Shown: positions 1 to 61,451, counted from the first letter of the stretch. The stretch: DNA of 64,000 nucleotides from an uncultured bacterium (GCA_963707485.1 CAVPQS010000046.1:2434-66433), one strand, 5' to 3'. Notes: generated by a model not told the origin, from the letters alone. Numbers and translations: made by a program.

Positions 1-591
1 GCGAGTACGAATCACCATGGTCAGGGGCTGCGACCACAAATTCGTCGCGCGCAAGTTTAAGCGCATCGTCGACTGGGAGAAATCGGCATCACCGTTGGTG
101 CGGTCGTGCTGGGTCATCCACTGCAAGGCAGCGGAACCGTATATGCGCGAGGCATTCGCCGAGTTGCGATTGGGTTGCTTACGCGAAGCCGTTGCCGGAA
201 CCGCAGTCGAATCGGAAGTCAATGTGTCGGCAGCAACAACGGCACTCGCCCGCTCGACTCTACTGATTACGCTGACGAATTGACCGGCTTTCAACTCCGT
301 GTCGCCGCCAACAATTTTACACGATGCTGAATGATCTGAGGCATAGGCGACTTCGAGGATAACGGAGAAGCCGTCGCCGCTTTGGATTCCGAGGCGATCG
401 CCGGGCAAAAGTCCGTCGGCCTTACCGCCTTCGAGATAAATTCGATCAACGGAGCGATATTTGATACGGTATTGCGTGGGCAGAGTTGAATCCTGTGCAC
501 GGGACGGAACCGACATGACGCCTATAAGGGCCAGTGCGAAGTAAATGGTAGATTTTGAACACAGATTCCGCAGAGTGAAAGTAATCGACAC
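1..591 (-). CDS. Secreted hypothetical protein, 3'-truncated at the window edge. It lies immediately downstream of the giant cytochrome and may be an outer-membrane beta-barrel or porin-like protein.
   Basis: I hand-translated the minus strand from ATG at 516 to position 1 and found no stop in 172 codons, so the gene continues past the window. Extending upstream in the same frame to GTG 589-591 gives a signal-peptide-like N-terminus (RNLCSKSTIYFALALIGVMSVPSRAQ). That codon sits directly after the cytochrome's TAG stop at 595-597. The distal part has alternating hydrophobic patterns (LNLRATNLW, LTMVIRTR) typical of beta-strands. The ORF is absent from the supplied track because no stop codon lies within the window. 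Confidence 0.4.
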   Translation of the reverse strand, partial: MSITFTLRNLCSKSTIYFALALIGVMSVPSRAQDSTLPTQYRIKYRSVDRIYLEGGKADGLLPGDRLGIQSGDGFSVILEVAYASDHSASCKIVGGDTELKAGQFVSVISRVERASAVVAADTLTSDSTAVPATASRKQPNRNSANASRIYGSAALQWMTQHDRTNGDADFSQSTMRLNLRATNLWSQPLTMVIRTR

Positions 592-594
592 TAG

Positions 595-3500
595 CTATTC
601 GCTTCCATCTGGATGACAGTTGAGGCATGCGGTACTCTGCCAAGTGTAGCCGGACACTTCTCGATGATCATTGTTCATATCCGTTTGATTGTGCTCATGA
701 CAGAAAATGCACTCGAAAACTGCATAATTCGACGAATTGACGTGGCAATCGGCGCAGGTATCCCACTTTTCCCGATGTTTGCCGGAATAGATCGGGAAGT
801 ACTGAGAGTCATGGTTCCAATTTGCCGGCGACCAAGCGCTGGTTGTGTGGCAGCTTTGGCACTCGGTTGGGAAATTGGCAGCCTGGTGATCGGGGTCGGT
901 GGCGCCGTCGTAAGCGGACTGGTGGCACGAGTAGCACAACATCGGCGTATTGACGTAGCCACCGGAATGACAATCGAGGCAGAGTAAGCCGACATGCGCC
1001 CCGGTCAACGGGAAGTTCGTGGCGCTGTGATTGAAAGTCGCCGGCGACCAAGCGGAGGTCGAGTGGCAATCATTACACAGATGGGAGAAGGCATTTGTGA
1101 CGTGATTCGGGTCAGTTACGCCGGTGAAGTCGCCCTGATGGCAACTGTAGCAAGCCGTCGGCGTGTTGGTGTAGCCGGTGGAATGGCAGGCAAGGCACTG
1201 GAGACTGGCATGGGCGCCGGTAAGCGGGAAACTTGTCGTGGTGTGATTAAATGTTGCCGGCGACCAGGCCGAAGTCGTGTGGCACGTCACGCAGTTATGG
1301 TCGAAATTATTCGCCGCATGGTTGGGGTCAGTCGCTGACGCGAAATCACCGGAGTGGCATGAGAAACAGGCGGTCGACGTATTGGTGTAACCTGTCGCAT
1401 GACAAGTCAGGCACTGGAGCCCGGCATGTCCGCCGGTCAGCGGGAATTGCGTCTGATTGTGATCGAAGGTCGCCGGTTCCCACGCAGTTGTGCCGTGGCA
1501 ATTGGTGCAAAGGTGGTCAAAGTTGTTGGTCACGTGATTCGGATCAGTGACCGACGTGAAGTCCGCGGAATGACAGCCGAAGCAGGTTTGATCGGTTCCG
1601 GCATAAGTCTGCAAATGACACGAAATGCATTGCAGCGAGGTGTGCGCGCCGACCAAGATGAAACCGGTCGAAGTGTGATTCCAGTTGGCGGGCGCCCAAG
1701 CGGAAGTCGCATGGCAACTCGCGCAGTCGTCAGAGAATGCGGCCTGGACGTGATTGGGATTAGTAGCTGATGTGACATCGGATTGATGGCACGAAATGCA
1801 TGTACTCGACGTGTTCGTGTAGCCGCCAACATGGCAAGTCACGCAAGCAACACTGCTGTGAGCGCCGGTAAGCGGGAAGTCGGTATTGCTGTGGTTGAAT
1901 GAACTCGGAGCCCAAGCTGACGTCGAGTGGCAAGTGGTGCAATCGTGATCGAAATTATTCTGCACGTGATTGGGCTCAGTTGCCGAAGCGAAATCGCCCT
2001 GATGGCAATCGAAGCATAGGCTCGGCGTATTGGTGTACCCGGTCGCATGGCAGGAAATACAAGCGAGAGAGGTGTGGGCGCCGGTCAAGTTGAAGCCGGT
2101 CTGGCTGTGGTCAAAATCGGCCGGTTCCCAAGCTGACGTCGAGTGGCAAGTGGTGCAATCGTGATCGAAATTATTCTGCACATGATTGGGCTCAGTTGCC
2201 GAAGTGAAATCGCCCTGATGGCAATCGAAGCATAGGCTCGGCGTATTGGTGTACCCGGTCGCATGGCAGGAAATACAAGCGAGAGAGGTGTGGGCGCCGG
2301 TCAAGTTGAAGCCGGTCTGGCTGTGGTCAAAATCGGCCGGTTCCCAAGCTGACGTCGAGTGGCAAGTGGTGCAATCGTGATCGAAATTATTCTGCACGTG
2401 ATTGGGCTCAGTTGCCGAAGTGAAGTCGCCCTGATGGCAATCGAAGCATAGGCTCGGCGTATTCGTGTATCCGCTGGCGTGACAGGAGATACAAGCGAGC
2501 GAAGTGTGGGCGCCGGTTAAGTTGAAGCCGGTCTGGCTGTGGTCAAAATCGGCCGGTTCCCAAGCTGACGTCGAGTGGCAAGTGGTGCAATCGTGATCGA
2601 AATTATTCTGCACATGATTCGGCTCGGTGGCCGAGGTGAAGTCGCCCTGATGGCAATCGAAGCATAGGCTCGGCGTATTCGTGTATCCGGTCGCATGACA
2701 GGAGATGCATGTCGTTGAAGTGTGTGCCCCTGTCAGGACGAATCCCGTAGTGCTGTGATCAAAGCTGCTGGGCGACCAGGCGGCAGTTGAGTGACAAGTG
2801 GTGCAATCGTGATCGAAATTATTCTGCACGTGATTGGGCTCAGTTGCCGAAGCGAAATCGCCCTGATGGCAATCGAAACATAACGTTGGCGTATTGGTGT
2901 ACCCGGTCGCATGACAGGAAATACATGTCGCTGTCGTATGGGCACCGGTCAATACAAAGCCGGTGGTGTTGTGATCAAAGCTGCTGGGCGACCAGGCGGA
3001 TGTCGAGTGACAGGAAGTGCAATCGTGATCAAAGTTGTTGGCAACGTGATTGGGATCGGTTGTCGAAGTGAAGTCACCGGTGTGGCAACTATAACATTGC
3101 GTGGAAGTCCCGGTGTAACCACTACTGTGACAGGAAAGACAGGCAAGCGCCTGATGCGCGCCGGTCAAGGCAAATTGCGTTTGATTGTGATCGAAGGTCG
3201 TCGGCGACCAGGAGAAATTAGTATGGCAGGTGAGGCAATTGTGATCGAAGTTGCTCGCCTCGTGGTCGGGGTCGTCTGCCTGTGCAAAGTCTCCGGAATG
3301 ACAGGAGAAACATAGCGGCGAGGTATCGGCATATCCGGCGCTATGGCAAGACTGGCATTGCAGGCCAACATGGGCGCCCTCGAGAGGGAAGCCGGTCAGT
3401 GTATGGTCGTATCCCTGCGGATCGACCGGAACCCAGGCAGTCGTATTGTGGCAACCGGCGCATTGATGGCTTAGACCGTTGGTGACGTGGTTAGGGTCGG

Positions 3501-4875
3501 AGGCAGCGGCAAAGACAACCTGGTGGCAAGCATAACAGTCATTGACAGTATTGGCATAGCCGGCGCTGTGGCACGATTGACAATCGACGTCGATGTGTGC
3601 GCCGTTGATTGCGAATCCAGTCTGGTCGTGGTCGAATTCAGCCGGCTGCCAGGCGGTCGTGGTGTGGCAAGTAATGCAATCATGGCTGAAGTCAGCCGAG
3701 ACATGGTCGGGATTGTTCGTAGCGGTGAAGCTTGCGCTGTGGCAAGAGAAACAATCCGTGGGCGTGCTGACGTAGCCGGTGCTGTGGCAGCTTTGGCATT
3801 CAAGCGGTCGATGGGCGCCGGTGAGCGCGAAATTCGTAGCATCGTGATTAAAGCTTGCCGGCTCCCAGGCATTTAGATTGTGGCAGGTGCGGCAATCGTG
3901 ATCAAAATTTCCGGCTGTGTGGTCCGGTTCTTTGGCTTGCGCAAAGGCGGTATTATGGCAGCTAAAGCAATCGGTCGCCGTTCCGGAGTAAGTGTCACTG
4001 TGGCAATCCTGGCACTGGACGGTAGCATGCGCACCTTCAAGAGCAAAAGATGTCAGGGAGTGGTCAAATGCCGCCGGAGTCCAGGCAGTCATTTTGTGGC
4101 ACTGGCTGCAATCCTGTGAGAAGTTGGCTGCTTCGTGATCCGGGTCTGGTGCGCTGAGATAATCTGTATTGTGGCAAGAGTAGCAATCCGTTGGCGTGCC
4201 GACGAACTGGGTAGCGTGGCACGAGGCGCAATCGAGGCCGATATGCGCGCCTTCGAGAATCGGTGTGGGCGGATGGTCAAATTTCGCACCGGACCAATCT
4301 AAGGCAGTTGAGCGATGACACTGAACGCAGTCGGCGCTGAATCCGGCGAGGACGTGGTTGGGATCTTCGGTCGAGGCGAAGTCACTTTCGTGGCAAGATT
4401 GACACTCGGGCGAAGTCCCTGCGTACTGGTCGCTTAACTGGCCCTGATGGCAGGATTGGCAATCGGCAATCGCGTGGGCTCCCATGAGGGCAAATCCGCG
4501 AGTGGCATGAATTTCGAAAGTTTCCTGCTCGTTTTGCCAGCCGCGAGTTGTGTGGCAATTTTGACAAAGGGAGCCAAGTTGTCCGCTGTGGGGATCGGCG
4601 TGACAGTTAGCGCAATCTTCGGCGACGTTTGCGAATGCCAGATCGTTATGGCAAGCCATGCACTTGACTTGCTTATGCTTACCGGAGAGTGGAAAGCCGG
4701 TTTGCTCGTGAGGGAACGGTTTGTCCGTTCTCATCTGGGTCCAGCCGCCGGTAGAATGGCAGGTCGCGCAATCAAACTTGATGTCACCGTGCGGGTTATC
4801 ACCCTGGGCGAGAGTTGTGATTGTGAGTCCGGTAGTGAAAGCAATTGTCAGACATACTCTTAACAGAGCAATCAT
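595..4875 (-). CDS. Giant secreted multiheme c-type cytochrome, 1426 aa, about 58 CXXCH motifs, built from about 19 repeats of a 72-aa triheme unit.
   Basis: The supplied translation has an N-terminal signal peptide (MIALLRVCLTIAFTTGLTITTLAQG). I counted about 58 CXXCH heme-binding motifs by hand. A recurring ~72-aa unit has the pattern FDH-x-TGF-x-LTGAH-x4-C-x-SCH-x-GY-x-T-x3-CF-x-CH-x-DF-x5-PNHV-x3-F-x-DC-x2-CH-x3-AW-x-P. Confidence 0.9.
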   Translation of the reverse strand: MIALLRVCLTIAFTTGLTITTLAQGDNPHGDIKFDCATCHSTGGWTQMRTDKPFPHEQTGFPLSGKHKQVKCMACHNDLAFANVAEDCANCHADPHSGQLGSLCQNCHTTRGWQNEQETFEIHATRGFALMGAHAIADCQSCHQGQLSDQYAGTSPECQSCHESDFASTEDPNHVLAGFSADCVQCHRSTALDWSGAKFDHPPTPILEGAHIGLDCASCHATQFVGTPTDCYSCHNTDYLSAPDPDHEAANFSQDCSQCHKMTAWTPAAFDHSLTSFALEGAHATVQCQDCHSDTYSGTATDCFSCHNTAFAQAKEPDHTAGNFDHDCRTCHNLNAWEPASFNHDATNFALTGAHRPLECQSCHSTGYVSTPTDCFSCHSASFTATNNPDHVSADFSHDCITCHTTTAWQPAEFDHDQTGFAINGAHIDVDCQSCHSAGYANTVNDCYACHQVVFAAASDPNHVTNGLSHQCAGCHNTTAWVPVDPQGYDHTLTGFPLEGAHVGLQCQSCHSAGYADTSPLCFSCHSGDFAQADDPDHEASNFDHNCLTCHTNFSWSPTTFDHNQTQFALTGAHQALACLSCHSSGYTGTSTQCYSCHTGDFTSTTDPNHVANNFDHDCTSCHSTSAWSPSSFDHNTTGFVLTGAHTTATCISCHATGYTNTPTLCFDCHQGDFASATEPNHVQNNFDHDCTTCHSTAAWSPSSFDHSTTGFVLTGAHTSTTCISCHATGYTNTPSLCFDCHQGDFTSATEPNHVQNNFDHDCTTCHSTSAWEPADFDHSQTGFNLTGAHTSLACISCHASGYTNTPSLCFDCHQGDFTSATEPNHVQNNFDHDCTTCHSTSAWEPADFDHSQTGFNLTGAHTSLACISCHATGYTNTPSLCFDCHQGDFTSATEPNHVQNNFDHDCTTCHSTSAWEPADFDHSQTGFNLTGAHTSLACISCHATGYTNTPSLCFDCHQGDFASATEPNHVQNNFDHDCTTCHSTSAWAPSSFNHSNTDFPLTGAHSSVACVTCHVGGYTNTSSTCISCHQSDVTSATNPNHVQAAFSDDCASCHATSAWAPANWNHTSTGFILVGAHTSLQCISCHLQTYAGTDQTCFGCHSADFTSVTDPNHVTNNFDHLCTNCHGTTAWEPATFDHNQTQFPLTGGHAGLQCLTCHATGYTNTSTACFSCHSGDFASATDPNHAANNFDHNCVTCHTTSAWSPATFNHTTTSFPLTGAHASLQCLACHSTGYTNTPTACYSCHQGDFTGVTDPNHVTNAFSHLCNDCHSTSAWSPATFNHSATNFPLTGAHVGLLCLDCHSGGYVNTPMLCYSCHQSAYDGATDPDHQAANFPTECQSCHTTSAWSPANWNHDSQYFPIYSGKHREKWDTCADCHVNSSNYAVFECIFCHEHNQTDMNNDHREVSGYTWQSTACLNCHPDGSE
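1890..2990. repeat. Near-identical 216-bp tandem repeats, about 5 copies, inside the giant cytochrome gene. Each copy encodes one 72-aa triheme unit.
   Basis: Copies start near 1912, 2128, 2344, 2560 and 2776 at 216-bp spacing. They differ by only a few substitutions. More degenerate copies flank the array across most of 700..4400. Confidence 0.8.
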
Positions 4876-4889
4876 GTCACAGTCCAGTA

Positions 4890-6596
4890 TTAGAGATCAC
4901 CGGTCTTACTATCATGGCAACTATTGCAGTCCGTCTTTAATGGTTTGTATCGGACTAAAACGGTTGATTCTTCAATGACATTTTTGTGACATTCGCCACA
5001 GGGTACACGAGCGTGCGCGCCTTCAAGACGATAACGCGAATCACGGTCATGGTTAAATTTTGATGCCTTCCAATTATCGGTGGTATGGCAACGCTCACAA
5101 ACGGTCGCCCCAGCCACGACAAACTGACCTCGGTGAATATCAATATGACAATCGTTGCAGTTACTTGGCAGTAGCGCGAAAGTCAGCATTGATACATTCG
5201 TTCTATCATTTTTGTTCCCGTGACAGTCCAAACATTTTGCCGTGACATGTTTTCCAATAAGTGGAAATTTTGTGGAATCGTGGGCAAAGGTGGACTCGCT
5301 CCAACTCTGGACCGAGTGACAACTTTCGCAGCCGCCGGCCTGTACCCACTTGTCTGCCTTACCGCTGTGTGGATCCTTGTGGCAGGTCTTGCAGGCTGAT
5401 TGTTCAAACGTGAAGCGGTATTCGCGCGGGGATTTTCCCGGCGGCGAGCTTATGTGACAAGCATCACATGGGACGGCCAAATGCGCGCCCTTGAGCGGAT
5501 AAGAAGAACTGTCGTGCTGTTCCACTGTGAATATTCCGGGACGGAATCCATCTACGTTATGGCAGCGCTCGCATTTCGGTCCGCCGGGGCTCTTGGCAAA
5601 TGCGCCTTGATGGAAATCCTTGTGGCAGTCGCTGCAGAGACTAAACGCGAGTGTCTTACGCGGTTCTTCCTGCTTGTGGCATTTTGCGCAGACGAGCGGT
5701 TTATGCATACCGAGCAGCGGAAAGCGCGTTCGGCTGTGATCGAAACTGTTGTTGTCGACCGACCGCCAACCGTTGACGTTGTGGCAACTGGCACAGTTCG
5801 GTCCCAATCTGCCGACATGAGGGTCTTTATGGCAGGAGCTGCATTCGGAGAATTGAAGTCCAGTGAACTTCCGGTAGGAAGTGTCGGCGACGTTAGCGGG
5901 GTCGCTCACAGTCGGGTGGCACTTGGCGCACGCCACCTGCACGTGGAGCCCGGCAAGCGCGTATTTGGCTTTTTGATGGTCAAACGCTGCGGCCGGTTTC
6001 CAGGATGCGTTAGAGTGGCACGACTCGCAGGTTGAGGCGACCTGACCGCGGTGCTCATCGAAATGGCAGCTTTTGCAGGCGGTCGACAGGCCCTGGTAGG
6101 TGCGCGCCGGGTCCTTTTGTGCGTCGCCTTCGCGAAATTCGGGTGGGAGATTTTTTGCTGTATGACACTGGCGGCATTGCAGCGGTTTATGTGCGCCGGT
6201 GAGTTCGTATCCGGTTAGATTATGATCAAAGGCGGAGTCGCCGTCTTTCCAGTAGACGAGATCGAAATCACGCCCGTGATGTTCGACGTGGCATTCCTCG
6301 CAGGCGTTGTATTTGTTGCGTCCATGCAGACCCGTACTTGATTCAAGTTGTTTCTTAACTATGGTGTGGCAGTTCAGGCAATTCGGGGCGATATGCGTTT
6401 CGTCAGCGCCATGGCAGGACTTGCAATTGTCAAGACCTTCCAGATGTGCGTGGGCTTTGGAAAGATCGCCGGGCGAGAGTTGTGCAATTGCCGGGTTAAT
6501 ACCGGCGATCAAGAGCAACACGAAGGAGAAAAGGAATGCGCGAATATGAAACCGCCGATTCGCAATGCGGGCGAAATGCAAGGGGTGTCTGGACAT
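4890..6596 (-). CDS. Multiheme c-type cytochrome, 568 aa, about 20 CXXCH, secreted or membrane-anchored.
   Basis: There is a hydrophobic N-terminal signal or anchor (FLFSFVLLLIAGINPAIAQ). I counted about 20 CXXCH motifs, including CKSCH, CLNCH, CEECH and CRQCH. The stop lies 14 nt upstream of the 58-heme cytochrome start on the same strand. Confidence 0.9.
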   Translation of the reverse strand: MSRHPLHFARIANRRFHIRAFLFSFVLLLIAGINPAIAQLSPGDLSKAHAHLEGLDNCKSCHGADETHIAPNCLNCHTIVKKQLESSTGLHGRNKYNACEECHVEHHGRDFDLVYWKDGDSAFDHNLTGYELTGAHKPLQCRQCHTAKNLPPEFREGDAQKDPARTYQGLSTACKSCHFDEHRGQVASTCESCHSNASWKPAAAFDHQKAKYALAGLHVQVACAKCHPTVSDPANVADTSYRKFTGLQFSECSSCHKDPHVGRLGPNCASCHNVNGWRSVDNNSFDHSRTRFPLLGMHKPLVCAKCHKQEEPRKTLAFSLCSDCHKDFHQGAFAKSPGGPKCERCHNVDGFRPGIFTVEQHDSSSYPLKGAHLAVPCDACHISSPPGKSPREYRFTFEQSACKTCHKDPHSGKADKWVQAGGCESCHSVQSWSESTFAHDSTKFPLIGKHVTAKCLDCHGNKNDRTNVSMLTFALLPSNCNDCHIDIHRGQFVVAGATVCERCHTTDNWKASKFNHDRDSRYRLEGAHARVPCGECHKNVIEESTVLVRYKPLKTDCNSCHDSKTGDL

Positions 6597-7457
6597 TTAG
6601 GAAAGTCCCGAAAATCCAGTCCAAACCGCAACACCTATATGAATGCCCATGATCAAATACATGATAATTGCAAAGGGCTTGTGGATGACGTGCCAGTAGT
6701 GGAAGACCTCGCGCGTACGGTCGAGCATTTCGATTCGGCGGGCAAGCGCGGAGCGTTCAAGTGCAAGTTTGACAATTAGTTTGGCGCTCTTGTCGGAGAC
6801 TTTTACAGTCTTCTTCAATTCGCGCGTCAGTTTGCTAGTTGCGAACGGGCGAGTTAAATCGGAAATGAACATTCGGATTAAGAGGGTGAGAAACGAACTT
6901 TCGGCCCCCGTGCCGCGTTTTGCGAGTGTATCAATATGAGCAAGCTGTTCCGGCTGGAGATCGAACTGTTCTTGAAGCGTTAAGGTTGACTGAAGCATCT
7001 GCTTGTCGATTTCCGAAAGCGACAATTCATCGCCCTCCTGATTGCGAGGAATCTGGATGTACAGGTATCGCCCAAGGTAACCGCTAATGGCGACCGCAAC
7101 CATTGACCAGAAGGCGACGGCAATCAGGCCCTGCACCTTAAATGATGAATGCAAAATGATGAAGAGCGGTCCGCAGACGCCAAGATAAATGTGCAATTTC
7201 AACCAGTTTCGGAGGGTGATTTTTTTGCCCAGCAGTTTGGTACGCTTACGAAGAGAGTAGGTCAGCATGAGGATCATCATGGCGGCGCCGATGTAGCCAT
7301 AGGCGATACCACGGCTGCCGGCCGGTCGCAGTTGGCGGTAATCCTCATGATGCGGGCGTTCGGTATATGGAGTATTGTAGTAGTTAAATCCCGCAATAAG
7401 GCAATAGACGATTGCAATTAGAGTTACGACATACAGAATGACCAGCGGACGTTTCAT
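6597..7457 (-). CDS. Polytopic membrane protein, 286 aa, with His residues in transmembrane helices. It is the first gene of the cytochrome operon and may bind heme b or quinone.
   Basis: It has four N-terminal hydrophobic helices and one C-terminal helix (FHYWHVIHKPFAIIMYLIMGIHIGVAV). The third helix also carries two His residues (LHIYLGVCGPLFIILH). Its stop directly abuts the ATG of the 20-heme cytochrome, suggesting translational coupling. I do not recognise a family. Confidence 0.55.
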   Translation of the reverse strand: MKRPLVILYVVTLIAIVYCLIAGFNYYNTPYTERPHHEDYRQLRPAGSRGIAYGYIGAAMMILMLTYSLRKRTKLLGKKITLRNWLKLHIYLGVCGPLFIILHSSFKVQGLIAVAFWSMVAVAISGYLGRYLYIQIPRNQEGDELSLSEIDKQMLQSTLTLQEQFDLQPEQLAHIDTLAKRGTGAESSFLTLLIRMFISDLTRPFATSKLTRELKKTVKVSDKSAKLIVKLALERSALARRIEMLDRTREVFHYWHVIHKPFAIIMYLIMGIHIGVAVWTGFSGLS

Positions 7458-7579
7458 GAGTTCCCATAATAAAATAATTCGATTAGAATTTTAAACGCGA
7501 TTCGTTCTACAAGTATATCGACTTAAAGGTTCATTAAACTGAGCGGTGGCAGGGAGTAAACTAAAGCGGACAAGATCTC

Positions 7580-10426: not shown

Positions 10427-12445
10427 ATGAGGATCGATATCCGCGCGATCTCCAGAATTGTCCTAATTATTGCCCTGCTGCTTCCCCTGCAAGCACGGGG
10501 ACAATACAGCAAGGAAGTAAATCCATTTCCGGTAATTGCCGGCGGTGATACACTTGGCTATCCGTTTTGGGGCGGCATTAATAATCCCAAGCCGTCGCTT
10601 GTTGATTTCGACGGAGATTCCCTTTTTGATCTTTTTATAGGCGAAAGCTCGGGCAAACTGAATTTCCTGCGAAATACAGGCACACCGAATATGCCGATCT
10701 GGACGCCGGTCACTGAGCGATTTGCCGGGCTCGATATTGGAACGTGGCATCGGTTGGTTGATATTGACGGCGACGGCGACCTTGATGTCCTGTGCGACAA
10801 CATCAGCAACGGCGCGGCGTTCTACCGCAACCAGAGCGTCGGGAGCAACATCGTTTTCGTAGAAGCGGACTCGGCATTTGGCGGCATCACGACCGGGGTC
10901 AACAATACGCCGGCGTTGACGGACATCGACAATGACGGCGATTTGGACTTTTTCGTAGGTGATCCGGGCGGGCAATTAGTGTTTTATCGCAATGTCGGAA
11001 ACAGTGCGATTCCTTCGTTTTCGCTGATCTCGGCGTTCTACGACAGTATACTGGCATTTCCCGGCGGCGGATTCGGTAAAGTTGCGGGACCGCAACATGG
11101 ATTCAGCGCGATCAACTTTGCGGATATCGATGCTGACGGCGACCGTGACCTCGTGTGGGGCGATCTCTTCAACACGAATCTGTATCTGTTCGCAAATCTT
11201 GGCACGCCAACGACGTCAGACTTTACCTACCAGACAGACACTTATTTGTCGCCATCCTACTCGACGCTGGGATTCAACCACACGCCACTTGCGGACGTTG
11301 ACGATGACGGCGATCTCGACATGATTTTGGCACCGGCCAATGGTGAATTTGTCGACAATCTCAAATTTTTGCGCAACACAGGAACGGCCGCGGCGGCGAA
11401 CTTCGTGCTTGAGCAGCAAAACCTGATTGATGAAATCGACGTCGGGCGCAGCGCGTTTCCGGACTTGGTGGATATCGACGGCGACGGCGATTTGGATTTC
11501 TTTGTCGGCGGCGGCGACGGTCAGATAGCCTTTTACCAAAACACCGGATCGCGATCGCAGGCGGTGTTCAGCCGGGTAACGACGGCATTTGGAAGCATCG
11601 ACGTGGGATCTACGTCTATGCCGGCATTCGTCGATTGGGATTCGGACGGTGATAACGATCTGTTAATCGGAAACGAGAACGGATTTATTCAGCACTGGCG
11701 GAATGACGGCAACGAATGTGCGCCGGCGTTTGTACTGGTTACAAACCAGTTTGCAGGGATCAAAGTTGATCAACTTGCGGTGCCGGCGCCGGTCGATTTG
11801 GACAAAGATGGGCTGATCGACCTCATCGTCGGCGAATGGGATTTCAACGGCTCGGCGAATGTTCTGCTCTACGAAAACACCGGAAGCGTTGGGAGCCCGG
11901 TTTTGACTTTGGTCACGAAGTCTCTGATTAAGAAGCAGGCGCGCGATTTCACGATTCCGGCCGCAGTCGACTGGGACGAAGACGGCAAGACAGACTTGGT
12001 GATCGGCAATCGGCTGCTTGGTTTGACGTTATATCGGAACACTGCGGCATCCGGAACTTTTCCAGATTCGTTGACACTGTTGCCCCAAGCTGACAATATT
12101 CCGGGACGTGACGTCGGCTCGCGGGCTGCGCTCACCCGGGGCGATATTGATTCGGATGGCGATTTGGATATCATGGTCGGTGAAGAGGACGGCGGCGTGA
12201 ATTTCTTCCGCAAGGAAGGCGGAGCAATTTATCGACCAGGCGACCCGGACGGAACTGGTATCATCACGATTTCTGACGCGGTGTTCTTGATCAATTTCAT
12301 CTTTGCGGGCGGATTGGCGCCTGCGCCGCTACTTAACGGGGACGCCGACTGCACGGGAATTATTACGATTTCCGATGCGGTGTTCTTGATCAACTACATT
12401 TTTGCCGGCGGTCCGACACCGTGTGCCGCTTGCAGCGGCAGGTGA
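10427..12445 (+). CDS. Secreted FG-GAP/VCBS-repeat protein with two C-terminal dockerin-like repeats.
   Basis: It has a signal peptide (LLLPLQARGQ). It carries at least 8 repeats of D-x-D-G-D-G-D-L-D/F-F-V-G calcium-binding FG-GAP-like motifs. At the C-terminus there is a 120-bp direct DNA duplication (about 12253-12312 and 12358-12417). Both copies encode GIITISDAVFLIN(F/Y)IFAGG, which looks dockerin type-I-like. Confidence 0.75.
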   Translation: MRIDIRAISRIVLIIALLLPLQARGQYSKEVNPFPVIAGGDTLGYPFWGGINNPKPSLVDFDGDSLFDLFIGESSGKLNFLRNTGTPNMPIWTPVTERFAGLDIGTWHRLVDIDGDGDLDVLCDNISNGAAFYRNQSVGSNIVFVEADSAFGGITTGVNNTPALTDIDNDGDLDFFVGDPGGQLVFYRNVGNSAIPSFSLISAFYDSILAFPGGGFGKVAGPQHGFSAINFADIDADGDRDLVWGDLFNTNLYLFANLGTPTTSDFTYQTDTYLSPSYSTLGFNHTPLADVDDDGDLDMILAPANGEFVDNLKFLRNTGTAAAANFVLEQQNLIDEIDVGRSAFPDLVDIDGDGDLDFFVGGGDGQIAFYQNTGSRSQAVFSRVTTAFGSIDVGSTSMPAFVDWDSDGDNDLLIGNENGFIQHWRNDGNECAPAFVLVTNQFAGIKVDQLAVPAPVDLDKDGLIDLIVGEWDFNGSANVLLYENTGSVGSPVLTLVTKSLIKKQARDFTIPAAVDWDEDGKTDLVIGNRLLGLTLYRNTAASGTFPDSLTLLPQADNIPGRDVGSRAALTRGDIDSDGDLDIMVGEEDGGVNFFRKEGGAIYRPGDPDGTGIITISDAVFLINFIFAGGLAPAPLLNGDADCTGIITISDAVFLINYIFAGGPTPCAACSGR

Positions 12446-15832: not shown

Positions 15833-15950
15833 CAGGACGAATAATATTCAAAATTCACGGGGCGATCAAGCTGAATCCAAACAAATCATCGACCCGATTA
15901 TGTGAGGATTAGCGCTTTTCGAAGACTCCGATTCGAGCTATCTTGGGGCT

Positions 15951-17117
15951 ATGAAGTTGTCTTGTTATGCACATGTGCCCTTTTGTGCGCGAATTTGCAC
16001 CTACTGTGATTTCTACCGGATCGTACACGATGCCGAGTGGGAGAGCCGCTACATTGACGCAATTTGCACCGAGATCGATCTTCGATTTGCCGCGTTGGCC
16101 GCGACGCTGCCGGATAATTGCAGGACGATTGAGTTGGAGACTCTGTACTTCGGCGGCGGGACTCCGACTGTGCTTTCGGAGGTGTCGTGGCGCAAAATCG
16201 TCGGGCGCTTGAGGCAGTATTCCGAATTTTCCGGCAACATCGAATTTACCAGCGAGGCAAATCCGGAATCATCCAAGGCAGACAAAATCGGGCTATTGCG
16301 CGAACTCGGAGCCAATCGGATATCGTTTGGCGCCCAATCGTTTGACTCAGCTAATCTCAATCGCCTCGGTCGACTGCACAATGCGGAGCAAGTCGGCGAA
16401 GCGATCGGGACTGCACGGGCCGCCGGATTCGAGAATGTTTCGCTTGATTTGATGTATGGACTTCCGGACGAGACGGATGAAACTTTCGACAACGATCTCA
16501 GGCAAGCAGTTGCACTTGCGCCACGACACATATCGTTCTACGCGCTGATGCTTGAAGGGGCCGTGCCACTAAGATACCAGGTGCAGCGAAAGGAAGTGAC
16601 AGTTCCGGAGGACGATGTTGTTTCCGAACGTTATATGCGGGGAGTCAAGTTCCTGGCGGAGTCCGGTTACGGACATTACGAAATTTCGAACTATGCCCTG
16701 CCGGGTTACGAGTGTCGACATAATCTCGCCTACTGGCGGCATCGGAACTATATTGCCTTTGGACCTGCCGCCGTAGGGACAATCGAGAGTGTAAGGTATA
16801 AGAACGAATCGGACATATATCGTTACGTCAAGCATCTGGCTCAGCGCGAACTGCCGATTGCGGACTTGGAAGAGATAACACCCGGAAAGAAACTCATTGA
16901 GACGATAATGTTATCATTGCGCCTGGCGGATGGATTGGATCTTACGGCGTTGAAGGCCAATTTCCAATATGACTTACTGACCGCCCGAGGCGGATTGTTG
17001 ACCAGATTGGAAAGCGGAGGCGACATTAGTGTTGACAGCGCGAATTTGCGCCTGACGACAAAAGGAATGTTTCGCTCCGACCTGATTGCTTCGGCGTTGC
17101 TGCCCGATTTTATTTAG
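15951..17117 (+). CDS. hemW: Radical SAM family heme chaperone HemW, an oxygen-independent coproporphyrinogen-III oxidase-like protein.
   Basis: It has the CARICTYCDF CxxxCxxC radical SAM motif close to the N-terminus. Length is 388 aa, and the C-terminal region is HemN_C-like. Confidence 0.8.
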   Translation: MKLSCYAHVPFCARICTYCDFYRIVHDAEWESRYIDAICTEIDLRFAALAATLPDNCRTIELETLYFGGGTPTVLSEVSWRKIVGRLRQYSEFSGNIEFTSEANPESSKADKIGLLRELGANRISFGAQSFDSANLNRLGRLHNAEQVGEAIGTARAAGFENVSLDLMYGLPDETDETFDNDLRQAVALAPRHISFYALMLEGAVPLRYQVQRKEVTVPEDDVVSERYMRGVKFLAESGYGHYEISNYALPGYECRHNLAYWRHRNYIAFGPAAVGTIESVRYKNESDIYRYVKHLAQRELPIADLEEITPGKKLIETIMLSLRLADGLDLTALKANFQYDLLTARGGLLTRLESGGDISVDSANLRLTTKGMFRSDLIASALLPDFI

Positions 17118-17205
17118 TTTCGACTTCGCCAAAACACTACAAACTCGCTCCTGATTTCGCATTACTAACATGGAGTCAAATTTAGTCGATGTTTGTGCTT
17201 CAACA

Positions 17206-17234
17206 GGCTTGACAGAAAATGCGAGGGACCTTAT
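17206..17234 (+). promoter_or_regulatory. Sigma70-like promoter (TTGACA-N17-TATCAT) upstream of the PAS/LuxR regulator gene.
   Basis: TTGACA at 17206-17211 and TATCAT at 17229-17234 are separated by 17 nt. This element lies inside the longest ORF call (17219..), so it argues for the downstream start at 17369. Confidence 0.3.
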
Positions 17235-17368
17235 CATATAGGGTCGTCAAAAAGACGTGGGCACAAATTCGAGGCTTCTCTGCGTTACGCAGTACTTGGA
17301 CGGGTCTGGATTGGCCAGGGGAAGTATGTCGGAGGATTTGTAAGTGCAGGATCTTCGAAGCGATTCAC

Positions 17369-24124: not shown

Positions 24125-27100
24125 CTAGTCCCCGCTCACCGTCAGGGTAAATGGCGACCAGTAGTAAGGGTGCCGATGCCGCAGACGCGGTGAATTTATC
24201 ATTTCCAGTTTTGCGCGGCGCAGCGCTTCAGCATAACCAGATGACAGGTTTTGGTAGAAAGTCTTCATGAACGTGGCTGTGGTAAAGTCCTCGACTTCCC
24301 AGAGTGACACCAACAAATTATGGGCGCCGGCTTGCATGAAAGCCTTGACGAAGCCGTCCATTCCCTCGCTGACATCGAGTTTGCCGCCGCCGGATTCGCA
24401 AGACGACAAGACAACCAGGTCGGCGCTGAGTTTCAGTTCGTCGACTTCCGCCAGAGTCAGATAACTTTCGGCATTAGTCGCGGTGGTGTCATCCGAGAGC
24501 CAGATTTTAGATCGAGCCGGATCGCGATAATTAATCGTCGAGTGGGTCGCGGCGTGAAAGATCCGGTAGTCGGCGAGTCGAAGCCGCAGGAGTTCAGCTT
24601 TGGTGGCAGTTGACGCAGTGAGGATCGTGCAATTATTCGCTCCGAAGATGCCGCAAATCCAATCGACCTCGCGCGCACTGAACGGCAGTTGGCGTTGCTG
24701 CGAGTCTGAGCGAGGATCGGCCAACGCGAGAATGTGCCAGTTTTCGGTGCGCCGGGGCCCAAGTTCCTGTGGTGAAAACAGGAATAGCGAAGGCAAGGCA
24801 GCAACGGCGGCGTATTCGATCAGGTACTTGCCGTCAATCCGGAGCGCTTCAAAGGGCAAGATTGACAAGACGCCATCAGATGAGATAAGAATGCGGTCAA
24901 AGGAATCGGGGACCAGCAATGATTTTGGCAGGAGCAATTGACCGACTTGAGCTGCCGCTGTATATAGACTGTCGAGTAAGCTGTCGTTCTTGATTGACAA
25001 TTGTATCAGACGCATGAATTCGGAGATCGACGGGGTGAGAATCTCCCGTCCAGGCAAGAGCTCAGTCTTGATCTGAGTCTTGCAGATCAGAAGCGCGTAA
25101 CTTTCGTCGGGCGTGAGCAGGTACGAGATCAGGACCGTGCGACTATCGGGAAGTGCAGATTGGAGTCTCATTATTGCAATAGGCTCGGGCGTGTAGACAC
25201 GAACTGCAGCGGCGTTCGCGACACCAGCTTTGAGCCGCAGATCAGACAGTGTTTTCTCGAGGTCGGAAAGTTTCGCAACTTTCGCTTTCACCGATCGCGG
25301 AATTGAGTCATCAGCAAGTGAAGACTCAACTTGCTCAATTTCGCGTAAAAGTTGTCGCTCGCCGGTTTTATTAGGACGATGTTTGGACTCGGGACCTGTA
25401 GAACTGCGTTCGGCGATGATGTCGAGGAGTCCGCGCGACTTGGCTCTTTCGATATAAATCAGCAGCGAGTCATCATAGTCGCGGTTGTTTCCGCTTTGGC
25501 GAATGTGAAAGAGTGTCTTGACCATTTCTTCATACACCGATCGTGCCTGCGATTGAAAGCTTCCGCGCAGTTGTTCATCGGGAATGGACCCGCGTGATTT
25601 CTCTGATCGGGCTATGATTCGCGCAAGGTAACGATAGGCATCGTGCCACCGGCTCTCGTCGATCGCTATGTTCGAATGAATGATGTCGATTTTCTGCGAG
25701 TTGGAATAGGTGCGGCAGGAATCGAGGAGAATCTCTGCGCGCGCCAACAGGTCTTTAGACGCGGAGAGGTCTTTGTTTTCGCGGCTAAAATCGGACCGGA
25801 GACAAAGCAGGTCGATTCGGCGTTGCAGTGTCAACACGCCGGCCTGGAGTGTCGACGCGCTGTCGAGTAATTGAATTGCTTGCCTGTGATTGCCCAGAGC
25901 TTGCTCAATGCGAGCGCGGGCTATCAGCGAATTGCTCAGACCTCGCCTATCGTTGCTGAGTCCGGCAATTTCGGCCGATTTGGCGGCATAGTCGAGAGCG
26001 GCGGTTGTATCACCGACAGCGCAGTACAGTTCGGAAAGATTGCCCAGAGTTTCGCCGGATTGCAGGCGAAGATCGACTTGACGACGAATATCGAGGGCGC
26101 GTTGATAATAGTCGATTGCCGATTCGAGATCGCCGAGCTGCTGATGCAGAGAGCCGAGGTTATGGAAAATTGTCGCCAGAGCCACACGGTTACGCGTTTT
26201 GACTGCCAAGTCTTCCGCCTGCAGGTAGTGCTCAAGTGATTGCGTAAAGTAACCCAGTGAGGACTCAAGTGCGGCATAGTTTTGCAGGACTGCTAAGGCG
26301 AGTCGGTGGCTATTAGCCGCCATCGACGAGCGGACTGCTTCGTCATAGAGCGTTATCGCCGAATCAAGGTCTCCTTTTAGCTCGGCAAGAATCGCTCGGC
26401 AATAAGTTAATCGAACTGGGTCGCTTTTCGCAGGCAATGCAACGCCGAGGGCAGTAGCCTCATCGAACCATTCATTTAGCTGCGAGACCTGCACTTCGCG
26501 TGCAAAGGCTGGTATCATGGTAACGAGCGAAGTGTAAACTGAAGTCGAGTCCTGCAGCGCGCGCCGCAACGCGAGGGATTCTTCGGCAAATCGCCGGGCG
26601 TTGTGTTTGTCGCCGATTGAAAGGTATATGGACGCGATGTTGCTCAGACATTCGGCGACTCCGGCCCGGTCGCCAAGTTCGGCTTTAATCACCCGCGCCG
26701 AGTCAAAGTATGCGCCGGCTTTGATGAATTCCAACTTCTCGCTTAACAGCCTTCCCAAGAGATTGTAACTTCGTGAAAGGGCATCCAGATCACCGATGAG
26801 TCGACTTAGGTTCAAACTTTGATTCAGAATCTTGTCGGCCAATTCGGTGGTCATGCCTCTCGCGGCCGCGTGCTGCCACGAGTTTGCCGCCGAGCTTGAA
26901 TCACCGAATGCGAGAAACTCATTTCCCAGTTCGGCCATCTGGCTGCTATAAATTTCTACCGGTCCCTTGTTTCCGGCCAAGCCTTCAAGATTGGTAGAGA
27001 ATTGCAGTTTGAGCTGGCTGCGAAGCAGGAAGTAATGTTGTTTCCAAGTCTTGAACTTGCTGCATTGGCGGACATAAAAGTCGTCGCCGTATTCAGTTAG

Positions 27101-27379
27101 CACGAAATTTGCAGCTTCTTGTATTTGCTCAAAGAGGACCGTGTCGCCCGTGTCAAAGTAGTTTTCGAGTCCGCGCTGGAGATAGCGGTATAGTTCAAAG
27201 CGACTGCCAAAATCGAGCGAATCGGGCTCGGAGGACGCAAGAGCCGGAGTTGAATTCTGCGTTAGTAGAAATGTCAGGGTCAGCAGCAGGCACTTTAAGA
27301 GCATGATTGGCAATCTACGCCAGAACGGACGCATTGACAAGCGTGATACGGCGAGCCAGAAAATTGACAGCAATGCCAA
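24125..27379 (-). CDS. Secreted TPR-repeat protein with a C-terminal CHAT (caspase-like) domain, 1084 aa.
   Basis: It has a signal peptide (LLLTLTFLLTQNSTPALA) and many TPR-like repeats in the first ~600 aa. The CHAT hallmarks are HAATHS ... LVVLSSCESGGG ... LLVSLWEVEDFTTATFMKTFYQNL. Confidence 0.85.
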   Translation of the reverse strand: MALLSIFWLAVSRLSMRPFWRRLPIMLLKCLLLTLTFLLTQNSTPALASSEPDSLDFGSRFELYRYLQRGLENYFDTGDTVLFEQIQEAANFVLTEYGDDFYVRQCSKFKTWKQHYFLLRSQLKLQFSTNLEGLAGNKGPVEIYSSQMAELGNEFLAFGDSSSAANSWQHAAARGMTTELADKILNQSLNLSRLIGDLDALSRSYNLLGRLLSEKLEFIKAGAYFDSARVIKAELGDRAGVAECLSNIASIYLSIGDKHNARRFAEESLALRRALQDSTSVYTSLVTMIPAFAREVQVSQLNEWFDEATALGVALPAKSDPVRLTYCRAILAELKGDLDSAITLYDEAVRSSMAANSHRLALAVLQNYAALESSLGYFTQSLEHYLQAEDLAVKTRNRVALATIFHNLGSLHQQLGDLESAIDYYQRALDIRRQVDLRLQSGETLGNLSELYCAVGDTTAALDYAAKSAEIAGLSNDRRGLSNSLIARARIEQALGNHRQAIQLLDSASTLQAGVLTLQRRIDLLCLRSDFSRENKDLSASKDLLARAEILLDSCRTYSNSQKIDIIHSNIAIDESRWHDAYRYLARIIARSEKSRGSIPDEQLRGSFQSQARSVYEEMVKTLFHIRQSGNNRDYDDSLLIYIERAKSRGLLDIIAERSSTGPESKHRPNKTGERQLLREIEQVESSLADDSIPRSVKAKVAKLSDLEKTLSDLRLKAGVANAAAVRVYTPEPIAIMRLQSALPDSRTVLISYLLTPDESYALLICKTQIKTELLPGREILTPSISEFMRLIQLSIKNDSLLDSLYTAAAQVGQLLLPKSLLVPDSFDRILISSDGVLSILPFEALRIDGKYLIEYAAVAALPSLFLFSPQELGPRRTENWHILALADPRSDSQQRQLPFSAREVDWICGIFGANNCTILTASTATKAELLRLRLADYRIFHAATHSTINYRDPARSKIWLSDDTTATNAESYLTLAEVDELKLSADLVVLSSCESGGGKLDVSEGMDGFVKAFMQAGAHNLLVSLWEVEDFTTATFMKTFYQNLSSGYAEALRRAKLEMINSPRLRHRHPYYWSPFTLTVSGD

Positions 27380-28715: not shown

Positions 28716-28726
28716 GACCGGCGAAA

Positions 28727-30490: not shown

Positions 30491-30498
30491 GGCGATTC

Positions 30499-57960: not shown

Positions 57961-58025
57961 ATTTACTACTCCAGTATCTCACAATCAAAACAAATTCGAC
58001 CTAATATACAACTACTTACTCCCTA

Positions 58026-61280: not shown

Positions 61281-61451
61281 TCGTCCTCCGACGTCGGTAG
61301 TTAAGTCGCATATTCGACCCAATTGGCGACGTTGTAGTTAACACTAACTAACAGGATCGGCACTGTCAAGGGAAAAGTGAGTTATTTTGTTACTTTTTTC
61401 ACAATCTTAGAGCCAAAGGACCGATGATCCCGATAGTTATTTACTCGTAAG

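Follow-up and report, generated by a model that had tools for sequence, protein, structure and literature searches.

The 64,000-nucleotide stretch of DNA analyzed here (the window; GCA_963707485.1, CAVPQS010000046.1:2434-66433) encodes a polypeptide of 1426 amino acids with 58 CXXCH motifs. At a probability of roughly 60%, we read this protein from its sequence and gene context as the length-variable, outward-reaching multiheme cytochrome (MHC) of a trans-envelope electron conduit that resembles the porin-cytochrome cluster PCC3 and is encoded by a five-gene operon. The giant cytochrome is a member of a large, widespread family and is not unique.

A cytochrome built from tandem triheme modules

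The giant cytochrome gene and its parts lie on the minus strand, as follows.

595–4875, minus strand: giant multiheme cytochrome c of 1426 aa with 58 CXXCH, the operon member that varies in length
4804–4875, minus strand: predicted Sec signal peptide, aa 1–24, read from the sequence (MIALLRVCLTIAFTTGLTITTLAQ)
4261–4803, minus strand: N-terminal cap, 7 hemes, aa 25–205, CXXCH spacing 36/16/16/35/19/25
787–4260, minus strand: 16 tandem triheme modules, 14 of 72 aa and 2 of 75 aa, aa 206–1363
1876–2955, minus strand: homogenized central block of five modules, aa 641–1000, 84–98% mutual identity
598–786, minus strand: C-terminal cap, 3 hemes, aa 1364–1426, FPIYSGKH...CLNCHPDGSE

The original prediction had described a secreted polypeptide of 1426 aa with about 58 CXXCH motifs, counted by hand. 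The frame is indeed open over this length and begins with a predicted Sec-type signal, and the exact count is 58; 2000 shuffles of the same residues average 0.86 and never exceed 6. CX3CH, CX4CH and CXXCK motifs are absent, the sole cysteine outside the CXXCH motifs falls within the signal peptide, and the other five frames of the interval contain 25–84 stops and no CXXCH at all. The protein is rich in threonine (12.9%), alanine (10.0%), serine (9.6%) and glycine (5.9%), and it carries 72 histidines beyond those of its motifs. With a Sec signal, CXXCH motifs and additional conserved histidines for each heme, it has the features of a multiheme c-type cytochrome of the class III-like, bis-histidine kind, and the sequence supports its description as a Sec-type secreted and extremely heme-dense protein (24.6 aa per heme) whose 58 sites, judged from their motifs only, would each hold a heme.

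Between a 7-heme N-cap and a 3-heme C-cap stand 16 modules in which the CXXCH motifs are spaced 32/15/25, for a total of 72 aa, matching a 216-nt period in the DNA (TRF). The tandem 72-aa triheme unit had been recognized from the outset; its copy number had been put at about 19, of which 16 are canonical (two of them 75 aa long) and the remainder are the caps. Every module contains H6, C11xxCH, C26xxCH, H42, C51xxCH, W60 and H67, so that the invariant extra histidines number exactly three, as would suit a module holding three bis-His c-type hemes. The spacers noted at first sight (LTGAH, PNHV, NFDHDC and AW-P-FDH) are all present in the module consensus, and the impression that the unit was not one already described agrees with our finding neither a dedicated family model nor a solved relative for it. 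The N-cap is divergent from the modules and keeps its heme spacing pattern in Emticicia, where the C-cap is also kept; the C-cap occurs internally in longer homologues as well. An AF2 model of two modules reached a pLDDT of 88.7, and a four-module model was poor (pLDDT 54).

The heme count across assemblies and orthologues

The gene contains exact internal DNA repeats of up to 192 nt in its central block, and the heme count could have been inflated by misassembly of such near-identical repeats, the true protein being a 46-heme form or one of some other length. Precisely such a form, with 1138 aa and 46 CXXCH, is encoded in L002, an NCBI assembly made independently from the same population. The DNA of this form matches the window gene at 100% identity over its first 2081 nt and its last 1419 nt; what sets the two apart is four modules (864 nt), lost cleanly and in frame across an 83-nt identical junction in the central block. 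Short-read Logan contigs, moreover, end at the start of the giant cytochrome gene. However, the usual short-read error is collapse rather than expansion, and five independently assembled orthologues at 51–77% identity are 1419–1426 aa long, have exactly 58 CXXCH each and share the module layout down to where the two 75-aa modules stand. Because all five carry 58, we take this number to be most likely the genuine state and consider misassembly very improbable. Collapse of the count on resequencing had been named as grounds for abandoning the original prediction; the count drops to 46 in L002 and holds at 58 in all five orthologues. That six orthologues keep 58 hemes despite homogenization within the protein points to selection on length.

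Relationship to c7-type cytochromes

The modules had been described as c7-like, with the Geobacter GSU1996 family as the closest comparison. HMM searches, suggested at that time as a check, gave a split result: Pfam c3, c7 and CIII models exceed their cut-offs on the whole giant cytochrome, which reaches a summed 152 bits on Cytochrome_C7 (PF14522), but two bare modules score 21.0 bits, below the cut-off of 24.8, and of the parts taken singly only the N-cap passes (42 bits). When a profile of 72 module sequences was aligned by hhalign to PpcA (1OS6, with its sequence checked against the PDB), the probability was 3.8% and the CXXCH motifs alone were aligned. The order of ligands is also different, being H6, CXXCH, CXXCH, H42, CXXCH, H67 in the modules and H, H, CXXCH, H, CXXCH, CXXCH in c7, and the two are not cyclic permutations of each other. 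No methionine is conserved in the modules, so there is no His-Met heme of the kind found in GSU1996. Searches of the PDB by sequence and by fold returned no match, and the profile search of the PDB brought up no c7 chain. The idea of a polymer of c7-type triheme units with homology to the GSU1996 dodecaheme family, which draws on the 152 bits and on the three hemes per roughly 70-aa unit, is largely refuted, and we rejected a c7-like identity for the module on the grounds of its Pfam score, the hhalign result and the His/CXXCH order. The closest described concept is instead PCC3.

Operon context and family distribution

The operon comprises an inner-membrane protein (IMP), a 20-heme cytochrome, the giant cytochrome, a beta-barrel-like protein and, beyond the window edge, a 4Fe-4S/FAD protein. 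Its other elements within the window are listed here.

6597–7457, minus strand: IMP, 286 aa, about five TM segments, predicted di-heme b and ferric-reductase-domain (FRD)-like
4890–6596, minus strand: 20-heme cytochrome c, 568 aa, signal peptide, 20 CXXCH
1–591, minus strand: 5' part (about 197 codons) of a porin-like gene that runs off the window, GTG start at 589–591
7466–7495, minus strand: weak sigma-70-like promoter match directly upstream of the IMP start, 9/12 positions, not above shuffle expectation

All genes are on one strand, with the IMP and 20-heme genes contiguous, 14 nt between the 20-heme and giant cytochrome genes and 4 nt between the latter and the porin-like gene. The IMP contains WLKLH-x13-H (aa 85–103), SGYLG (aa 125) and WHVIH-x13-H (aa 255–273), and matches Pfam Ferric_reduct weakly (16.4 bits, cut-off 28). 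Its H89, H103, H259 and H273 are invariant, and among its homologues two HX13H motifs occur in 119 of 120 and SGXXG in 120 of 120. The full-length porin-like protein is 527–557 aa in L002 and L001, with a C-terminal beta-signal, and its full-length homologues (527–572 aa) have a signal peptide, amphipathic strands and no hydrophobic or TM helix. A C-terminal G-[YR]-R-[FL] motif is present in 27 of 28 sequences, and no relative was found in Pfam or the PDB. From these features, we predict an outer-membrane beta-barrel. Elsewhere in the window are two CbcL-like multiheme/cyt b561 fusions and a CcdA-type maturation protein, suggesting that the organism is equipped for EET.

The gene set recurs widely. 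All 20 clean related loci encode, in this order, the IMP, an MHC with exactly 20 hemes, an MHC with 16–58 hemes (always 3n+1) and a heme-free protein of about 540 aa, usually followed by a Fer4+Pyr_redox protein of about 440 aa. The IMP is found in at least 254 species genomes, and hosts of the operon include Zixibacteria (the source), Ignavibacteria, Calditrichota and Acidobacteriota; none of the top 80 loci in genomes comes from the Proteobacteria. Homologues of all five proteins are encoded on plasmid pEMTOL02 of the cultured Emticicia oligotrophica, adjoining ccsA, and a smaller flavoprotein–IMP–MHC triad recurs in Proteobacteria (plasmid matches). More than 3400 homologues of the giant cytochrome exist, with family heme counts between 16 and 100 that increase by threes (3n+1). 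The best 120 of these have 42–100 hemes (median 76). The protein had initially been placed among the most heme-dense cytochromes; its density stands, but 103 of these 120 exceed 58 hemes, and comparison of heme count and repeat architecture across homologues thus shows 58 to be unexceptional.

A proposed path for electrons across the envelope

In the conduit that we favor, a membrane-anchored cytoplasmic protein binding 2x[4Fe-4S], FAD and NAD(P), encoded just past the window start, would pass electrons to the IMP, which could carry them across the inner membrane through two b hemes held by its two HX13H pairs, as in ferric reductases, NOX and MsrQ. The 20-heme cytochrome would then act as a fixed-length ruler across the periplasm, spanning about 16 nm at about 8 Å per heme (as in MtrA and OmcS), and the beta-barrel-like protein of about 540 aa could provide the outer-membrane passage for the heme chain. 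Beyond it, the 58-heme protein, about 45 nm long if linear, may lead the chain onward to minerals, humics, electrodes or partner cells, with its conserved N- and C-caps serving as docking end and terminal end and its length evolving as whole triheme modules are gained or lost. Conservation of the gene set across phyla, the IMP signature, the contiguity of the operon and the T/S/A/G-rich composition all speak for such a conduit, and in this operon context a long electron-conducting chain, as first proposed under the name of a long-range heme wire, appears to be the best functional reading.

The same machine could potentially run in the opposite direction, drawing electrons inward from a partner cell or from Fe(II), Mn(II) or reduced humics outside the cell. 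Heme chains are inherently bidirectional, PCC3 was originally defined in neutrophilic Fe(II) oxidizers and is enriched in Sideroxydans, and iron reduction as well as iron oxidation has been considered for Zixibacteria MAGs. However, the operon conserves an NAD(P)/FAD/4Fe-4S protein as partner, and Fe(II) would have to reduce NAD(P)+ strongly uphill; the host taxa (Ignavibacteria, Calditrichota, Zixibacteria and Lentimicrobium-like) are, moreover, mostly anaerobic organotrophs that turn up on anodes and conductive particles. We consider inward flow rather unlikely.

What counts against a surface conduit is that, as far as the sequence can be read, the giant cytochrome has no lipobox and no recognizable secretion domain except its Sec signal. 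It might accordingly stay in the periplasm, as an intraperiplasmic wire or as a capacitor that buffers electrons when acceptors are scarce, a role already proposed for heme-rich cytochromes; the GSU1996-type periplasmic 'nanowires' are a precedent. We find this improbable, since the gene always lies directly upstream of the beta-barrel-like gene (here across the 4-nt gap), and since the 20-heme partner is invariant in length whereas the giant cytochrome ranges from 16 to 100 hemes, a pattern that fits a fixed periplasmic span joined to an unconstrained external part. A capacitor role would also leave the conserved caps without a reason.

Comparison with known systems

The outward-reaching conduit that we prefer is closest in concept to PCC3, a published but experimentally uncharacterized cluster predicted to form a trans-envelope heme wire (PMC5566968; PMC9900912), for whose MHCs published AF2 models are reported to be long and linear. 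The IMP of PCC3 and PCC4 is defined by two (W)X3HX13H motifs on separate helices and SGXXG, with about 300 aa and about 5 TM segments (He et al. 2017, PMC5566968), a signature that the 286-aa window IMP carries in its two HX13H motifs and SGXXG. In PCC3 the adjacent periplasmic MHC has about 21 hemes (21–27); the one here, with 20, is one below the proteobacterial range and corresponds to it. The second, larger MHC is likewise repeat-rich and T/S/A/G-rich, at 22–39 aa per heme (24.6 here), and the porin gene may have its counterpart in the gene of the barrel-like protein predicted from sequence features. Unlike PCC3, which was described in Alpha-, Beta- and Gammaproteobacteria, the present operon occurs in Zixibacteria, other FCB phyla, Acidobacteriota and others. 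The extracellular MHC repeats of PCC3 measure about 47 aa in L. cholodnii and about 23 aa in the Riftia symbiont (PMC5566968 supplement), as against the 72-aa triheme unit here. The fifth conserved gene (4Fe-4S/FAD/NAD(P)) lies outside the published definition of PCC3, whose IMP was proposed to be quinone-linked and not NAD(P)H-linked (He et al. 2017, PMC5566968). We suggest that the operon matches the PCC3 concept, differing in its repeat unit and in having an additional flavoprotein, the cytochromes and porin having been compared with those of S. lithotrophicus ES-1 and L. cholodnii SP-6 by description only.

[quoted passage not shown] Its heme numbers and taxon lead us to infer that it belongs to the same family.

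As in MtrCAB of Shewanella and OmbB-OmaB-OmcB and ExtABCD of Geobacter, a periplasmic MHC in an outer-membrane barrel would contact an outer MHC. The MtrCAB and OmbB-OmaB-OmcB-type complexes, however, have 10 + 10 or 8 + 12 hemes and outer cytochromes that are lipoproteins, and these systems are fed by quinol dehydrogenases (CymA, ImcH and CbcL), the place of which is taken here by the FRD-like IMP. The MtrA/DmsE decaheme family was considered and rejected (NCBIfam TIGR03508, 47.9 bits against a cut-off of 192.2).

As in NOX/FRE and MsrQ/YedZ, two helices of the IMP bear two HX13H pairs, and from these a stack of two b hemes is predicted, through which electrons would cross the membrane from a cytoplasmic NAD(P)H/flavin donor; in contrast to these proteins, the flavoprotein here is separate and has a 2x[4Fe-4S] domain, and the acceptor would be the 20-heme cytochrome. 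PpcA and GSU1996 resemble the giant cytochrome in a triheme unit of about 70 aa, in spending little protein on each heme and, as predicted for the giant cytochrome, in an elongated chain, but module-level homology is not detectable, the hemes of the giant cytochrome are predicted to be all bis-His and the His/CXXCH order differs; GSU1996 has 4 domains, as against 16 modules plus caps in a membrane and porin operon context. Finally, the OmcS, OmcE and OmcZ filaments offer long continuous heme chains and extracellular conduction at the micrometer/nanometer scale, which is predicted here. Whereas those filaments assemble non-covalently from subunits with 4–8 hemes each, the giant cytochrome is a single covalent polypeptide, its length genetically set in 3-heme steps.

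Architecture of the giant cytochrome

The original prediction described a giant secreted polypeptide with about 58 CXXCH motifs, and the sequence bears this out: the open reading frame encodes 1426 aa with exactly 58 CXXCH and no variant motifs. All but one of its 117 cysteines lie within these motifs, the exception being in the signal peptide, and the protein further contains 130 histidines and 7 methionines. Shuffling its residues yields a mean of 0.86 CXXCH (maximum 6), and the remaining five frames of the same interval hold none, along with 25–84 stops. Successive motifs are spaced 32, 15 and 25 residues apart, giving a 72-aa period that TRF recovers in the DNA as 216 nt. Triheme units of 72 aa were therefore correctly foreseen, but the expected count of about 19 is simply 58 divided by three; the protein is instead built of 16 modules between two caps:

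595..4875, minus strand: giant cytochrome, 1426 aa
Start of the protein: Sec-type signal peptide, with no lipobox (the protein is not a lipoprotein)
aa 25-205: divergent N-cap, 7 hemes
aa 206-1363: 16 canonical modules, 14 of 72 aa and 2 of 75 aa
C-terminal end: distinct C-cap, 3 hemes

Within each module, and also across 72 diverse family sequences, H6, C11xxC14H15, C26xxC29H30, P40, H42, C51xxC54H55 and H67 are invariant; of the two modules aligned, the first has W60 without exception and the second in at least 90% of sequences. Because each module has three CXXCH motifs and exactly three further histidines, its stoichiometry is that expected for three bis-His hemes. An AF2 model of four modules (33 sequences) reached a pLDDT of 54 and was set aside.

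Relationship to c7 and other cytochrome families

The unit had been likened to polymerised c7-type domains of the GSU1996 kind, a comparison that our searches do not sustain. The Pfam Cytochrome_C7 model scores 152 bits on the whole protein, but this is a sum of weak matches: two bare canonical modules score 21.0 bits against a cut-off of 24.8, and the N-cap, at 42 bits, is the sole part above the cut-off alone. When a 72-sequence module profile was aligned by hhalign with PpcA (sequence checked against PDB 1OS6), the probability was 3.8% and the alignment covered the CXXCH motifs only. The order of additional histidines and CXXCH motifs also differs, being H, H, C, H, C, C in c7 and H, C, C, H, C, H here, which is not a cyclic permutation. 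GSU1996 domains contain a His-Met heme; the module, in which no methionine is conserved, would be without one. Searches of all PDB sequences with the giant cytochrome (phmmer) and with a four-module profile (hmmsearch) returned nothing significant, the best match being a reaction-centre cytochrome at E = 0.011, and c7, GSU1996, MtrA and OmcS were not among the matches. On the profile alignment, the sub-cut-off module scores, the ligand order and the PDB searches together, we reject homology to c7 or GSU1996. Membership of the MtrA/DmsE family was likewise rejected, the NCBIfam score falling far under its cut-off.

Reliability of the heme count

A gene with exact internal repeats of up to 192 nt invites mis-assembly, a way for the motif count to collapse that the original prediction had itself raised, and a second contig gives the concern some substance. 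This contig (L002; NCBI GCA_049664025.1, JBATEL010000121.1, 2878-6294) is an independent one from the same population with the same operon, yet its giant gene encodes 1138 aa with 46 CXXCH. Its DNA is identical to that of the window over a 2081-nt prefix and a 1419-nt suffix that overlap in an 83-nt stretch, so the difference amounts to a clean in-frame loss of 864 nt, or four modules, within near-identical central modules. Short-read Logan contigs end at the start of the giant gene or upstream, within the 20-heme gene, and the exact giant cytochrome of the window was not found in the contig index. The window's inner-membrane protein (IMP) has a 100%-identical database entry annotated as Candidatus Zixiibacteriota. 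Against an inflated count in the window, five orthologues from other assemblies, at 51-77% identity and 1419-1426 aa, all carry exactly 58 CXXCH. They share the module layout, and in four of six proteins, counting that of the window, the two 75-aa modules also coincide in position. Since these orthologues agree, 58 is most likely the genuine count and not an inflated one, and the 46-heme contig either was collapsed in assembly or reflects a true deletion, that is, a length polymorphism.

The operon and its partner proteins

The giant cytochrome gene takes third place in a compact operon on the minus strand, which extends past the window start:

7457..6597, minus strand: IMP, 286 aa, running directly into the 20-heme gene
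6596..4890, minus strand: 20-heme cytochrome, followed by a 14-nt gap and then the giant cytochrome gene
GTG start 4 nt past the giant cytochrome stop, minus strand: porin-like reading frame with a signal peptide, crossing the window start
Past the window start: Fer4/FAD gene, the conserved fifth gene, at 15949-17289 in the related locus L001 and 14809-16131 in L085, an Emticicia plasmid

Promoter and terminator scans gave no match above chance. The IMP carries the motifs WLKLH-x13-H, SGYLG and WHVIH-x13-H; all members of its family have SGXXG, and the four histidines do not vary among them. Relatives of the porin-like protein are 527-572 aa long and heme-free, with no hydrophobic helix and with amphipathic strand patterns. 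Their C-terminal G-[YR]-R-[FL] (Phe in 21 of 28, Leu or Ile in 6 of 28) reads as a classical outer-membrane beta-signal, which makes the protein a putative barrel; the family has no Pfam relative, and a profile search found no PDB relative. In related loci the porin-like gene is usually followed by a fifth, encoding about 440 aa with an N-terminal transmembrane helix, a 2x[4Fe-4S] domain and a Pyr_redox_3/2 FAD/NAD(P) domain, and this protein is a possible NAD(P)H entry point.

A plasmid tblastn search with the IMP showed that a minimal triad, smaller than the operon, recurs in proteobacterial plasmids of Methylocystis, Bradyrhizobium BTAi1, Variovorax RA8 and Roseomonas (L086, L087, L088 and L090), consisting of a ferredoxin-reductase-like Fe-S flavoprotein (2Fe-2S), an IMP homologue and a c3-type cytochrome of about 260-290 aa, although no cytochrome is annotated in the Methylocystis and Roseomonas loci. 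This recurrence supports a role for the IMP family as the link between a flavoprotein in the cytoplasm and heme chains in the periplasm. The triad lies near copper-resistance genes in the Variovorax and Roseomonas plasmids, and pBBta01 has two copies.

Distribution and the 3n+1 rule

A word-indexed search retrieved more than 3400 homologues, with named sources in Ignavibacteria, Zixibacteria, Calditrichaeota, Eisenbacteria and Saprospiraceae; the best 120 carry 42-100 CXXCH (median 76) at a 72-75-aa period. An exhaustive search with the 72-aa module profile gave 4314 clusters at 50% identity, 2438 of them at E <= 1e-10. A cluster-member look-up supplied only Myxococcota and Elusimicrobiota names. 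The IMP alignment scan, at one genome per species, gave matches in 254 species. Its best 80 loci are all from metagenome-assembled genomes of Zixibacteria, Ignavibacteria, Calditrichota, Thermoanaerobaculia/Holophagae, Eisenbacteria, Abyssobacteria, KSB1 and others, with no Proteobacteria among these 80, and a tblastn search of plasmids with the module found Emticicia only. The giant cytochrome belongs to a very large family, publicly sequenced and experimentally untouched.

The two cytochromes of the operon differ in how their size varies. Where the gene chain is clean, the first carries exactly 20 hemes in 20 of 20 loci, and the second carries 16, 19, 22, 25, 28, 37, 52, 55 or 58, every one of the form 3n+1, a rule that 97 of the 120 best homologues also follow. 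The giant cytochrome therefore evolves by acquiring or losing complete triheme modules, while its caps stay constant (7 + 3n + 3). The window's central modules are 87-98% identical to their own paralogues and only 77-81% identical to their positional counterparts in a 77%-identical orthologue. Other orthologues likewise show higher identity between paralogous than between orthologous modules, and module number is nonetheless conserved, a pattern that points to concerted evolution of the central modules under selection for a fixed length.

Two distant module-bearing proteins, P0301 (3274 aa) and P0348 (3592 aa), have 129 and 131 CXXCH, above the 86-motif record in a 2019 review; the C-terminal tail of P0301 is Pro/Ala- and Gly/Met-rich. 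In longer homologues of the Saprospiraceae type (P0082, P0020, P0054 and P0048 among them), a C-cap-like unit, FPIYSG.H...C..CH.NPETD..H...GY.Y...AC.ACHP.G, recurs between canonical modules, and by this arrangement they look like several cap-delimited arrays joined.

The whole system is also present in a cultured organism, Emticicia oligotrophica DSM 17448, an aerobic member of the Cytophagales (Bacteroidota), on its 100-kb plasmid pEMTOL02 (NC_018749.1 78197-89995). The order there is ccsA (1029 aa), IMP, Fer4/FAD, a 23-heme cytochrome, a 40-heme cytochrome and a 538-aa porin-like protein, which RefSeq labels only as "cytochrome c3 family protein" or hypothetical. The IMP is 36% identical, the Fer4/FAD protein is 43% identical to the L001 copy, and the 40-heme cytochrome is 42% identical with the same N-cap and C-cap spacing. 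This strain would allow heme staining, localisation and deletion experiments.

Proposed electron conduit

We propose that the cytoplasmic Fer4/FAD/NAD(P) protein would donate electrons to the IMP and its two b hemes, as in NOX/FRE and MsrQ; they would then move to the 20-heme cytochrome and, through the putative barrel, across the outer membrane to the giant cytochrome. MtrA and OmcS have roughly 8 Å per heme. At that spacing, 20 hemes would reach about 16 nm, and their invariant number suggests a fixed span across the periplasm. The freely varying length of the giant cytochrome fits a part outside the envelope, which would reach about 45 nm if its 58 hemes were in line. A heme wire, as originally suggested, is plausible and now has an operon context; the c7/GSU1996 analogy has no support.

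The most far-reaching interpretation, less likely at a probability of about 0.3, is that the operon may be a trans-envelope conduit of its own kind, not defined before and spread widely among FCB-group phyla, Acidobacteriota and neighbouring phyla. It would combine a split NOX-like module using NAD(P)H and not quinol (the membrane-anchored 4Fe-4S/FAD protein and the ferric-reductase-domain (FRD)-like di-heme-b IMP) with a fixed 20-heme periplasmic ruler and a single-polypeptide extracellular nanowire. The gene would fix the length of this nanowire, three hemes at a time (3n+1, from 16 to at least 100), and selection would hold it constant within lineages (58 in six orthologues) despite gene conversion homogenising the central modules.

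Other redox genes in the window

Several further genes of the window concern electron transfer or heme proteins. At 55993-60656 (minus strand) lie two tandem fusions of multiheme c and cytochrome b561 (Ni_hydr_CYTB) domains, of 876 aa with 17 CXXCH and 655 aa with 11 CXXCH, preceded by a TetR-family regulator gene at 60669-61322 (minus strand); their architecture is like that of Geobacter CbcL-type quinol oxidoreductases, and together with the operon they bring the window to 106 CXXCH. The plus-strand interval 28604-34260 encodes a NuoF-like FMN/4Fe-4S protein and, after it, a 1276-aa protein in which 2Fe-2S, GltD-like Fer4_20/Pyr_redox_2 and molybdopterin oxidoreductase domains are fused; the pair resembles a formate-dehydrogenase-like complex linked to NAD(P)H. 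Two further genes could plausibly support heavy heme-protein production, one for a DsbD_2/CcdA-type cytochrome c biogenesis membrane protein (44827-45600, minus strand) and one for a HemN/HemW-like radical-SAM protein (15951-17117, plus strand). Three unrelated genes of the window encode a secreted FG-GAP/VCBS-repeat protein whose dockerin-like C-terminal repeat is duplicated (10427-12445, plus strand), a 1084-aa TPR-CHAT protein (24125-27379, minus strand) and a fused Eco57I/MmeI-type restriction-modification methylase (48077-51556, minus strand).

Significance and comparison with described clusters

Giant cytochromes carrying dozens of hemes have been on record since 2017, and we know of none with a known function or structure. 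A 58-heme gene by itself would no longer surprise specialists, and a 2019 review doubts whether such proteins are made with their full heme set. The gene is now part of a defined, testable system, comprising a five-gene operon in at least 254 species, the 3n+1 rule, a 20-heme partner and a proposed NAD(P)H entry. With these family rules, the additional flavoprotein and a plasmid-borne homologue in culture, experiments can address whether giant cytochromes are made, and what for. If the wire model is true, these would be the longest single-molecule biological conductors, and Zixibacteria, Ignavibacteria, Calditrichota and Thermoanaerobaculia, abundant in sediment and soil, would be implicated in extracellular electron transfer.

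Published work mentions in passing Ignavibacteria on anodes that have 33- and 40-heme cytochromes together with porin clusters, and 24- and 49-heme cytochromes ahead of a porin in Burkholderiales. A Lentimicrobium cluster of 61 and 20 hemes (PMC13013709), matched by heme numbers, is very probably the same system, because 61 is of the form 3n+1 and the partner has 20. The closest defined counterpart is the porin-cytochrome cluster PCC3, which comprises an IMP, a periplasmic multiheme cytochrome (MHC) of about 21 hemes, a large extracellular MHC and a porin (He et al. 2017, PMC5566968), and which is uncharacterised in the literature (PMC5566968; Hoover et al. 2023, PMC9900912). He et al. read its IMP signature, which that of the window matches exactly, as a ferric-reductase-domain-like di-heme b protein. 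The extracellular MHC of PCC3 is repeat-rich and T/S/A/G-rich, with a median of 34 hemes, up to 85, and 22-39 aa per heme. The window operon resembles PCC3 in its IMP, its 20-heme partner, its 24.6 aa per heme with T/A/S/G enrichment and its porin-like gene. It differs in its 72-aa repeat, compared with the about 23 or 47 aa reported for proteobacterial extracellular MHCs (He et al.), and in having the Fer4/FAD gene, which the published cluster lacks. With cytochromes and porin compared by description only, operons of the window type are best regarded as variants on the PCC3 concept.
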